From Escherichia coli (GTDB lineage Bacteria > Pseudomonadota > Gammaproteobacteria > Enterobacterales > Enterobacteriaceae), in the NCBI RefSeq assembly GCF_003334305.1, contig NZ_QOWS01000070.1: a stretch of 758 nt of DNA. One strand, given 5' to 3'. Shown here one piece after another: positions 1 through 758 of the stretch. The translations under genes and the position numbers were made by a program. Numbering within the stretch: the stretch's first letter is position 1; each line of letters opens with the position of its first letter. Below the pieces are notes generated by a model that had not been told where the DNA came from, searched no databases, and was given only the letters and a program-made list of their open reading frames with translations.

Positions 1-758
1 ATCCCGACGGGTGTGATACGGACGGACGACGAGCGGACCCACCACTACCACTACGACAGCCAGCACCGCCTGGTGTTCCACACGCGGATACAGCATGGCG
101 AGCCACTGGTCGAGAGCCGCTACCTCTACGACCCGCTGGGACGGCGAATGGCGAAACGGGTATGGCGGCGGGAGCGTGACCTGACGGGGTGGATGTCGCT
201 GTCGCGTAAACCGGAGGAGACATGGTACGGCTGGGACGGCGACAGGCTGACGACGGTACAGACCGACACCACGCGTATCCAGACGGTATACCAGCCGGGG
301 AGCTTCACGCCGCTCATCCGGGTCGAGACAGAGAACGGCGAGCGGGAGAAAGCGCAGCGCCGCAGCCTGGCGGAGAAGTTACAGCAGGAAGGGAGCGAAG
401 ACGGTCACGGTGTGGTGTTCCCGGCTGAACTGGTGGGGCTGCTGGACAGGCTGGAGGGGGAAATCCGGGCAAACTGCGTGAGCAGTGAAAGCCGCCAGTG
501 GCTTGCGCAGTGCGGGCTGACGGTGGAGCGGCTGGCGGCACAGATAGAGCCGGTTTATTTGCCTGAGCGAAAAATACATCTTTATCACTGTGACCACCGG
601 GGCCTGCCGCTGGCGCTTATCAGTGAAGACGGCAATACGGCGTGGAGCGCGGAATATGATGAATGGGGCAACCAGCTTAATGAGGAGAACCCGCATCACC
701 TGCACCAGCCGTACCGGCTGCCGGGGCAGCAGTATGATAAGGAGTCGGGGCTGTACTA
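1..758 (+). CDS. Rhs-family polymorphic toxin protein, conserved core (YD-repeat) region; internal fragment, partial at both ends (RhsA-D-like; paralogue cannot be assigned from this window)
   Basis: Seen in sequence: frame +1 is open across all 252 complete codons with no stop. The translation contains repeated YD-type motifs ([29 protein letters not shown]) and the characteristic end-of-core block [31 protein letters not shown] followed by [18 protein letters not shown]. From memory this closely matches E. coli RhsA/B/C core sequence just upstream of the core/toxin junction; no database search was possible. Codon usage is strongly GC3-biased (ctg, ccg, cgg, ggc), consistent with a real reading frame. 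The ORF track missed it only because the fragment has no in-window start codon. Confidence 0.93.
46..75 (+). repeat. YD-repeat unit (protein-level) within Rhs core: [10 protein letters not shown]
   Basis: Translated frame +1; matches the Y-x-YD-x-x-x-R-L pattern of Rhs/YD repeats. Confidence 0.6.
121..159 (+). repeat. YD-repeat unit (protein-level): [13 protein letters not shown]
   Basis: Translated frame +1; a near-canonical YD repeat (Y-x-YD-x-x-G-R) as found in Rhs, teneurin and TcC-type proteins. Confidence 0.7.
223..255 (+). repeat. Degenerate YD-like repeat unit (protein-level): [11 protein letters not shown]
   Basis: Translated frame +1; a W-D-G-D-R-L variant of the YD/GR-L repeat pattern, which is commonly degenerate within Rhs cores. 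Confidence 0.5.
583..672 (+). other. Conserved Rhs end-of-core motif block: [30 protein letters not shown]
   Basis: Translated frame +1; the Y-H-x-D-H-x-G-x-P ... W ... YD-x-W-G pattern is the hallmark conserved block near the C-terminal end of Rhs/YD-repeat shells. Confidence 0.8.
706..758 (+). repeat. Final YD-repeat of the core (truncated by window end): [18 protein letters not shown]
   Basis: Translated frame +1; the R-x-P-G-Q-x-YD-x-E-x-G-L-x-Y pattern, which in Rhs proteins immediately precedes the RYYDP...DPxGL core/toxin junction. The window ends inside this unit. Confidence 0.75.

Follow-up and report, generated by a model that had tools for sequence, protein, structure and literature searches.

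Identity and anatomy of the window

The window, by which we mean the whole 758-nucleotide stretch of Escherichia coli DNA analyzed here, almost certainly derives from the interior of an E. coli Rhs core gene, namely from the 3' part of a clade I core of the rhsD/E type, read in frame +1. That it encodes Rhs core is certain; that it derives from an intact toxin gene is not certain from the window. Frame +1 was open from end to end, as the original prediction had claimed, with 252 codons and no stop; the remaining five frames contained 6, 13, 10, 5, and 1 stops, and in mononucleotide shuffles of the sequence (n = 20,000) frame 1 was fully open in just 0.025%. The GC content at the three codon positions of frame +1 was 68/42/78%, which is typical for a GC-rich coding frame.

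Sequence models placed this translation firmly within the family. The NCBIfam model RHS_core (NF041261) matched amino acids 1-252, i.e., the whole translation, at profile positions 966-1217 of 1261 (E = 4.8e-161, 538 bits); the whole-protein cut-off of this equivalog model, 2000 bits, is out of reach for a fragment of 252 amino acids. A YD repeat (TIGR01643) was recognized at amino acids 7-31 with 23.3 bits (cut-off, 15.8), and the Pfam domain "RHS" (PF03527) was recognized at amino acids 192-228. Together with the 100% DNA identity to annotated genes described below, these three matches support the earlier claim that the window lies wholly inside an Rhs/YD-repeat core, and nothing counts against the assignment to the Rhs family. 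Two ways of verifying that claim had been proposed, a search of the frame +1 translation with Pfam RHS_repeat (PF05593) and a search with an Rhs core model. The former returned no significant match on the window translation (E = 4.6 and 10) and, used alone, would have given a false negative. The latter succeeded with RHS_core and fell short with the Rhs-associated core model TIGR03696 (Rhs_assc_core), which scored 17.8 bits against a cut-off of 32.5 because just its first 31 positions fall inside the window. The features recognized were as follows.

1..758, + strand: internal fragment of an Rhs core CDS (clade I, rhsD/E-type), from reading frame, family match, and exact DNA identity
1..333, + strand: last YD-repeat beta-strands of the shell (amino acids 1-111), from TIGR01643, alignment to solved shells, and beta-strands in an AlphaFold2 (AF2) model
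334..567, + strand: helical insert of about 78 amino acids (112-189), from the gap in the alignment to solved shells and AF2 helices
574..684, + strand: Pfam PF03527 "RHS protein" domain (amino acids 192-228), E = 3.3e-17
655..758, + strand: Rhs-associated core domain (TIGR03696), first 31 positions, from a match below cut-off
379..705, - strand: antisense open reading frame (ORF) of 108 amino acids, the longest in the mechanical ORF list; 40-42 residue changes versus 22-23 in frame +1; not a gene

The first of the shell segments, amino acids 1-111, aligned to residues 892-982 of Tse5 and residues 1090-1177 of Photorhabdus Rhs1. At the other end, the hyperconserved end of the core (655..758) precedes the C-terminal region with the plug and autoprotease, and two DPxGL motifs sit 50-130 nt beyond the end of the window. 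The window itself contains no toxin, catalytic motif, or signals of its own.

An intact gene linked to a type VI secretion system

Exact copies of the window were found at two kinds of chromosomal locus. In E. coli O103:H2 12009, the window equals codons 971-1222, in the same frame, of an intact CDS for a protein of 1,415 amino acids (WP_000509150.1), and in strain C3 it likewise equals codons 971-1222 of an intact 1,415-amino-acid CDS linked to a type VI secretion system (T6SS). The gene order in both strains was tssF-tssE-tssC-tssB, Hcp, VgrG, Rhs, a YdcD-family gene, a yncO-like ORF, two ISAs1 pseudogenes, and yafV, with 628 bits for the VgrG of the T6SS cluster against TIGR03361 and 215 bits for YdcD against NF050020. 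This linkage to vgrG and hcp was present directly upstream of the T6SS-linked gene and absent at the second locus, next to ybbP, which is described below.

The full-length CDS matched RHS_core over profile positions 1-1261 with 2667.7 bits, above the 2000-bit cut-off, and TIGR03696 at amino acids 1189-1266 with 85.6 bits. YD repeats (TIGR01643) were found in 7 stretches (163.7 bits), and Pfam RHS_repeat gave 7 matches at E <= 0.001, the 1,415-amino-acid protein having been scanned against Pfam as two parts. The N terminus carried DUF6531 (E = 4.5e-19); the match to PAAR there was not significant (E = 0.33), with "KPAARQGD" readable in the same region. The motif pair DPIGL-17 aa-DPMGL marked the end of the core, which closes 130 nt past the window and is followed by an AT-rich tip of 149 amino acids in which Pfam DUF6973 was the sole match and no NCBIfam model was matched. 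Past the window, the sequence of this gene reads TTGAGAGGTGGATGG, which is of the in-frame type. GC content was 60-70% across the core, dropped to about 40% in the tip, and was lowest, at 26-30%, in ydcD. A GC-rich conserved core, an AT-rich variable tip, and a small downstream gene are the arrangement expected of an Rhs polymorphic toxin system, and it is the one seen here, the two loci that share the window having unrelated tips and different downstream genes.

A frameshifted copy at the ybbP locus

In strains 504838, KSC1031, ATCC 43896, and C3, the exact window was found between ybbP and ylbG-mnmH, which is the position of rhsD in K-12, and in all four the CDS at this locus is flagged by RefSeq as "frameshifted; missing C-terminus." Strains C3 and 2011C-4251 each carry both copies, the T6SS-linked one and the one at the ybbP locus, in a single genome. 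The lesion lies in a run of seven G (CTGGAGGGGGGGATGG) at 66-72 nt after the window end (L002 6824-6830); the equivalent run has six G in the K-12 orphan ylbH (L007 7167-7172) and in strain E110019 (L009 about 5035). The surrounding context at the ybbP locus is CTGGAG, then G6 or G7, then ATGG, followed by a ylbH-type tip. Sequences past the window were GGAGGGGGGATGG for the G6 allele, with the frame intact, and GGAGGGGGGGATGG for the frameshifted G7 allele. In G7 copies, translation of the shell frame gives DPIGLEGGMES... before a stop, and the +1 frame reads GGWSLYAYPLNPVNGIDPLGL and continues into the tip; this places the break between the two autocleavage motifs, and the second motif and the tip are left in a separate ORF of 151 amino acids. 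An exact 81-mer with G7 occurred in 411 complete-genome records versus 6 for G6 in the same background, so G7 is a real and common allele rather than a sequencing error. E110019 (G6) encodes an intact CDS of 1,403 amino acids at the ybbP locus, of which the window is codons 966-1217, in frame. G7 may be a fixed pseudogene lesion; a less likely reading is that slippage in the run of six or seven G serves to switch the joining of shell and toxin on and off. No NCBIfam model matched the tip at this locus, and the gene downstream of it belongs to the NF011298/YbbD family.

These observations bear on the one alternative of real weight, namely that the source of the window is a decayed rhs copy, the G7 allele at the ybbP locus, whose shell ORF ends without the catalytic motif and the toxin. 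We give this somewhat less than an even chance. It draws on the four strains in which the exact window lies in a frameshifted CDS and on the preponderance of G7 over G6 among complete genomes, but the same window is also found in the intact 1,415-amino-acid T6SS-linked gene and in the intact 1,403-amino-acid G6 allele of E110019. With identical copies in both intact and frameshifted genes, the window alone cannot distinguish a working gene from a broken one. Decay competes solely with the reading of the window as part of an intact gene, not with its reading as Rhs core, and the window holds nothing to separate intact from decayed. With a common allele frameshifted just downstream, a match to the Rhs core is consequently no proof of an active toxin.

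The arrangement of the ybbP locus also differed from that of K-12. In the window-bearing strains, the main rhs core joins directly to a tip/immunity pair (L002 6863-7790 versus L007 6950-8131). The same pair is the downstream orphan ylbH-ybbD in K-12; at their ybbP locus, the window-bearing strains have neither the K-12 rhsD tip nor ybbC. Such a direct joint is consistent with a deletion via recombination between the core and an orphan core fragment.

Mosaic structure and a shared tract

Comparison of the two paralogues of strain C3 revealed that the window lies within a 1,619-nt tract that is 100% identical between them (L005 4185-5803 = L006 4185-5803) and spans 816 nt to the left of the window and 45 nt to its right. 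Identity was 65-80% over CDS nt 1-2094 (apart from one 150-nt block at 93%) and 100% over CDS nt 2095-3713, i.e., the 1,619-nt tract; past its boundary the tips of the two loci are unrelated (31-45% identity). The identical tract is the product of recent gene conversion or C-terminal displacement. Because it is duplicated exactly in some genomes, extending the contig may require long reads, and the fragment is not assignable to one locus; short-read assemblies will collapse or break at this 1.6-kb tract.

Compared with K-12 rhsD, the first 2 kb showed 94-100% identity in the ybbP-locus copy and only 67-78% in the T6SS-linked copy (86% in one 200-nt block); over the last 1.6 kb of the core, both copies were 84-98% identical to it. 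The K-12 rhsE remnant begins near the mosaic junction, and across the tip it matches the T6SS-linked gene at 100% identity. Downstream, ydcD, the yncO-like antisense ORF, and the two ISAs1/H-repeat pseudogenes (L001 11322-14350) are colinear with K-12 rhsE-ydcD-yncO-yncI-ydcC (L008 4923-7953), which lies at another chromosomal site. Because its 5' 2.1 kb is divergent and its 3' core, tip, and downstream genes resemble rhsD/E, the T6SS-linked gene is a chimera in which the last 1.6 kb of the core, the tip, and the downstream immunity module are of the rhsD/E type; the window falls within the exchanged segment. The divergent 5' 2.1 kb would belong to the rhsG/H subfamily, reportedly mapped near min 5.3 by Wang, Zhao and Hill in 1998, and the T6SS-linked element would then be "RhsG." The name is ambiguous, as the RhsG and RhsH of a 2020 EHEC paper are other, short genes. 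Three E. coli rhs core subfamilies are known, as is the displacement of C termini through recombination within the conserved core (Jackson et al. 2009 and the wider literature on rhs). The chimera fits these published accounts of C-terminal displacement and core recombination among rhs genes, and events of this kind have thus already been described.

A helical insert before the C-terminal plug

The window encodes an insert, just before the C-terminal plug, that has no counterpart in the solved Rhs shells to which it aligned. Tse5 (8CP6) aligned to the window in two blocks, amino acids 8-110 and 177-252, with 21 residues between the blocks in the structure, and Photorhabdus Rhs1 (7Q97) aligned at amino acids 13-110 and 189-252, with 3 residues between them; the E. 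coli protein holds 66-78 residues in this place. No chain matched the insert in a sequence search of the PDB. An AF2 model of a 441-amino-acid fragment (protein residues 850-1290), built from 79 aligned sequences, was poor overall (mean pLDDT 52.8, pTM 0.32), and from it we used the secondary structure and the local confidence of the insert alone. The model predicted helices at window amino acids 114-117, 123-130, 142-156, 162-170, and 175-179 (pLDDT 75-89), with beta-strands on either side.

The insert is specific to the clade and is kept in enterobacterial clade I Rhs proteins, with examples from E. coli, Shigella, E. albertii, Salmonella, Citrobacter, and Pseudocitrobacter. It is also the most variable stretch between paralogues, with 14 of the 22 differences from RhsD falling in amino acids 126-192, and natural variants include a tandem duplication (P0117) and deletions (P0099 and P0021). 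That the insert is a functional module in its own right, for example, a toxin-exit gate or a docking site for a partner, rather than passive decoration of the surface, seems unlikely.

Distribution and homologues

A megablast search of 5,426 complete E. coli genomes detected relatives of the window in 3,725 of them, at a median of 3 places each. At least 99% identity to the window was seen in 58 records; the top 25 were all 100% identical, and all of them lay in genes annotated as "RHS element core protein." Among 5.8 billion proteins searched, 704 matched the window translation. Those listed came mostly from Escherichia, Shigella, Salmonella, Citrobacter, and Pseudocitrobacter, and nearly all came from Enterobacteriaceae. 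Among the 120 best of the 704, all named matches were Rhs except for P0103, which carries the label Acinetobacter baumannii, and P0116, an Rhs-VgrG chimera. All 120 were fragments of at most 440 amino acids, many from contigs of about 1 kb, and the representative of the 100%-identical protein cluster came from a contig of 1,157 nt.

P0103, from a 1,066-nt contig, showed 92% identity, and its label is probably due to contamination or mislabelling. P0116 is an ORF of 390 amino acids on a 4.8-Mb E. coli contig that reads as Rhs core up to "...EEEIRADRVSSE" and then as VgrG, with VgrG Pfam domains. The point at which it switches from Rhs to VgrG falls inside the helical insert, and its structure suggests a rearrangement that fused rhs to vgrG.

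Other frames, RNA elements, and repeats

The mechanical list held 8 ORFs of at least 20 amino acids, and none of the 8 was frame +1. This bore out the earlier claim that an ORF track misses the real frame. The reason given for it, the want of a start codon, was mistaken: frame +1 contains in-frame ATG triplets at nt 148 and 193, as well as 7 GTG and 1 TTG. Frame +1 is missing from the track because it has no stop and extends past both ends of the window.

That one of the ATG/GTG ORFs in another frame, for example, the 108-amino-acid antisense ORF (379-705) or a 68-amino-acid ORF (222-428), is the real gene and that frame +1 is open by chance is extremely improbable. These ORFs do exist, and GC-rich DNA (62.7% for the window) is poor in stop codons, but the RHS_core match, the bias toward third codon positions, and the rarity of open shuffles all argue for frame +1. 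Substitutions fell preferentially at third codon positions of frame +1, as seen for 36 of the 63 that separate the window from K-12 rhsD and 34 of the 61 that separate it from K-12 rhsE; they led to 22-23 residue changes in frame +1 versus 31-47 in any of the other five. Selection thus acts on frame +1, and the 108-amino-acid antisense ORF is a by-product of this GC-rich sense frame; the same substitution pattern ruled out the other alternative-frame ORFs as genes. RefSeq agrees, since the sole CDS annotated under the window was Rhs in 25 of the 25 exact-match records listed. At the protein level, the ORFs in alternative frames show no conservation. The practical bearing is mainly on annotation, as an ORF caller that requires a start and a stop within the window misses the only real gene here and reports spurious out-of-frame and antisense ORFs instead.

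The idea that a structured RNA or a repeat element overlaps the coding sequence has next to no probability. The sole Rfam match in the window at E <= 1 (mir-1207, nt 507-641, E = 0.004) scored 28 bits, far below the gathering score of 90, and we regard it as due to chance; the family is a eukaryotic microRNA. A repeat search found two direct repeats, both short, and an inverted repeat of 12 nt; these were two-copy, 12-18 nt long, and imperfect, which is what chance and the periodicity of YD repeats would produce.

A proposed mechanism

By analogy with characterized Rhs proteins, the Rhs core to which the window belongs would fold as a closed beta-shell around a variable C-terminal toxin. The C-terminal plug just past the window would be an aspartyl autoprotease that cuts after the second DPxGL motif, so that the toxin would be freed inside the shell, and the loaded shell might then ride the VgrG spike of the T6SS into a neighboring cell. 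The small downstream gene would be expected to encode an immunity protein. The contribution of the window to such a device would be the wall of the shell and the insert, with no catalytic residue.

Comparison with known systems

The closest named relatives in K-12 are RhsD (b0497) and the rhsE pseudogene (b1456), which aligned without gaps over the 758 nt, at the same position in the core, with 91.7% and 92.0% identity, respectively, and 22-23 amino acid differences of 252. They belong to the rhsDE subfamily of Hill and co-workers, which Jackson et al. 2009 call clade I. The window has no exact copy in K-12, where the context of a T6SS cluster is missing as well.

Beyond E. coli, the window aligned to the solved T6SS Rhs shells 8CP6 (E = 7e-16), 7Q97 (E = 9e-12), 8QJB-D, 8UXT, and 8H8A. 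The similarity to the shells of Rhs1 from Photorhabdus laumondii and Tse5 from Pseudomonas aeruginosa is distant (E = 1e-7 to 1e-16), and the regions concerned, residues 1090-1177 and 1181-1246 of 7Q97 and residues 892-982 and 1004-1076 of 8CP6, are the last turns of the beta-shell before the C-terminal plug. A DPXG-(18)-DPXG boundary between core and tip was described by Jackson et al. 2009, and in Photorhabdus Rhs1 the DPxGL motif pair carries a catalytic Asp and is followed by self-cleavage. The DPxGL pair of the full-length E. coli CDS, with its spacing of 17 residues, matches both the boundary of Jackson et al. and the pair after which Rhs1 cleaves itself. The N termini differ: E. coli has DUF6531 and a nonsignificant PAAR match, whereas Rhs1 has prePAAR-TMD-PAAR and an EagR chaperone.

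None of the ten PDB matches at E <= 0.01 was a TcB-TcC or teneurin chain. According to the literature, the cocoons of TcB-TcC ABC toxins and the YD shells of teneurins share the same YD-repeat shell and aspartyl autoprotease plug, but they are not close in sequence and use another delivery apparatus. Set beside these systems, the biology of the window is already known, being textbook rhs behavior in the best-studied host.
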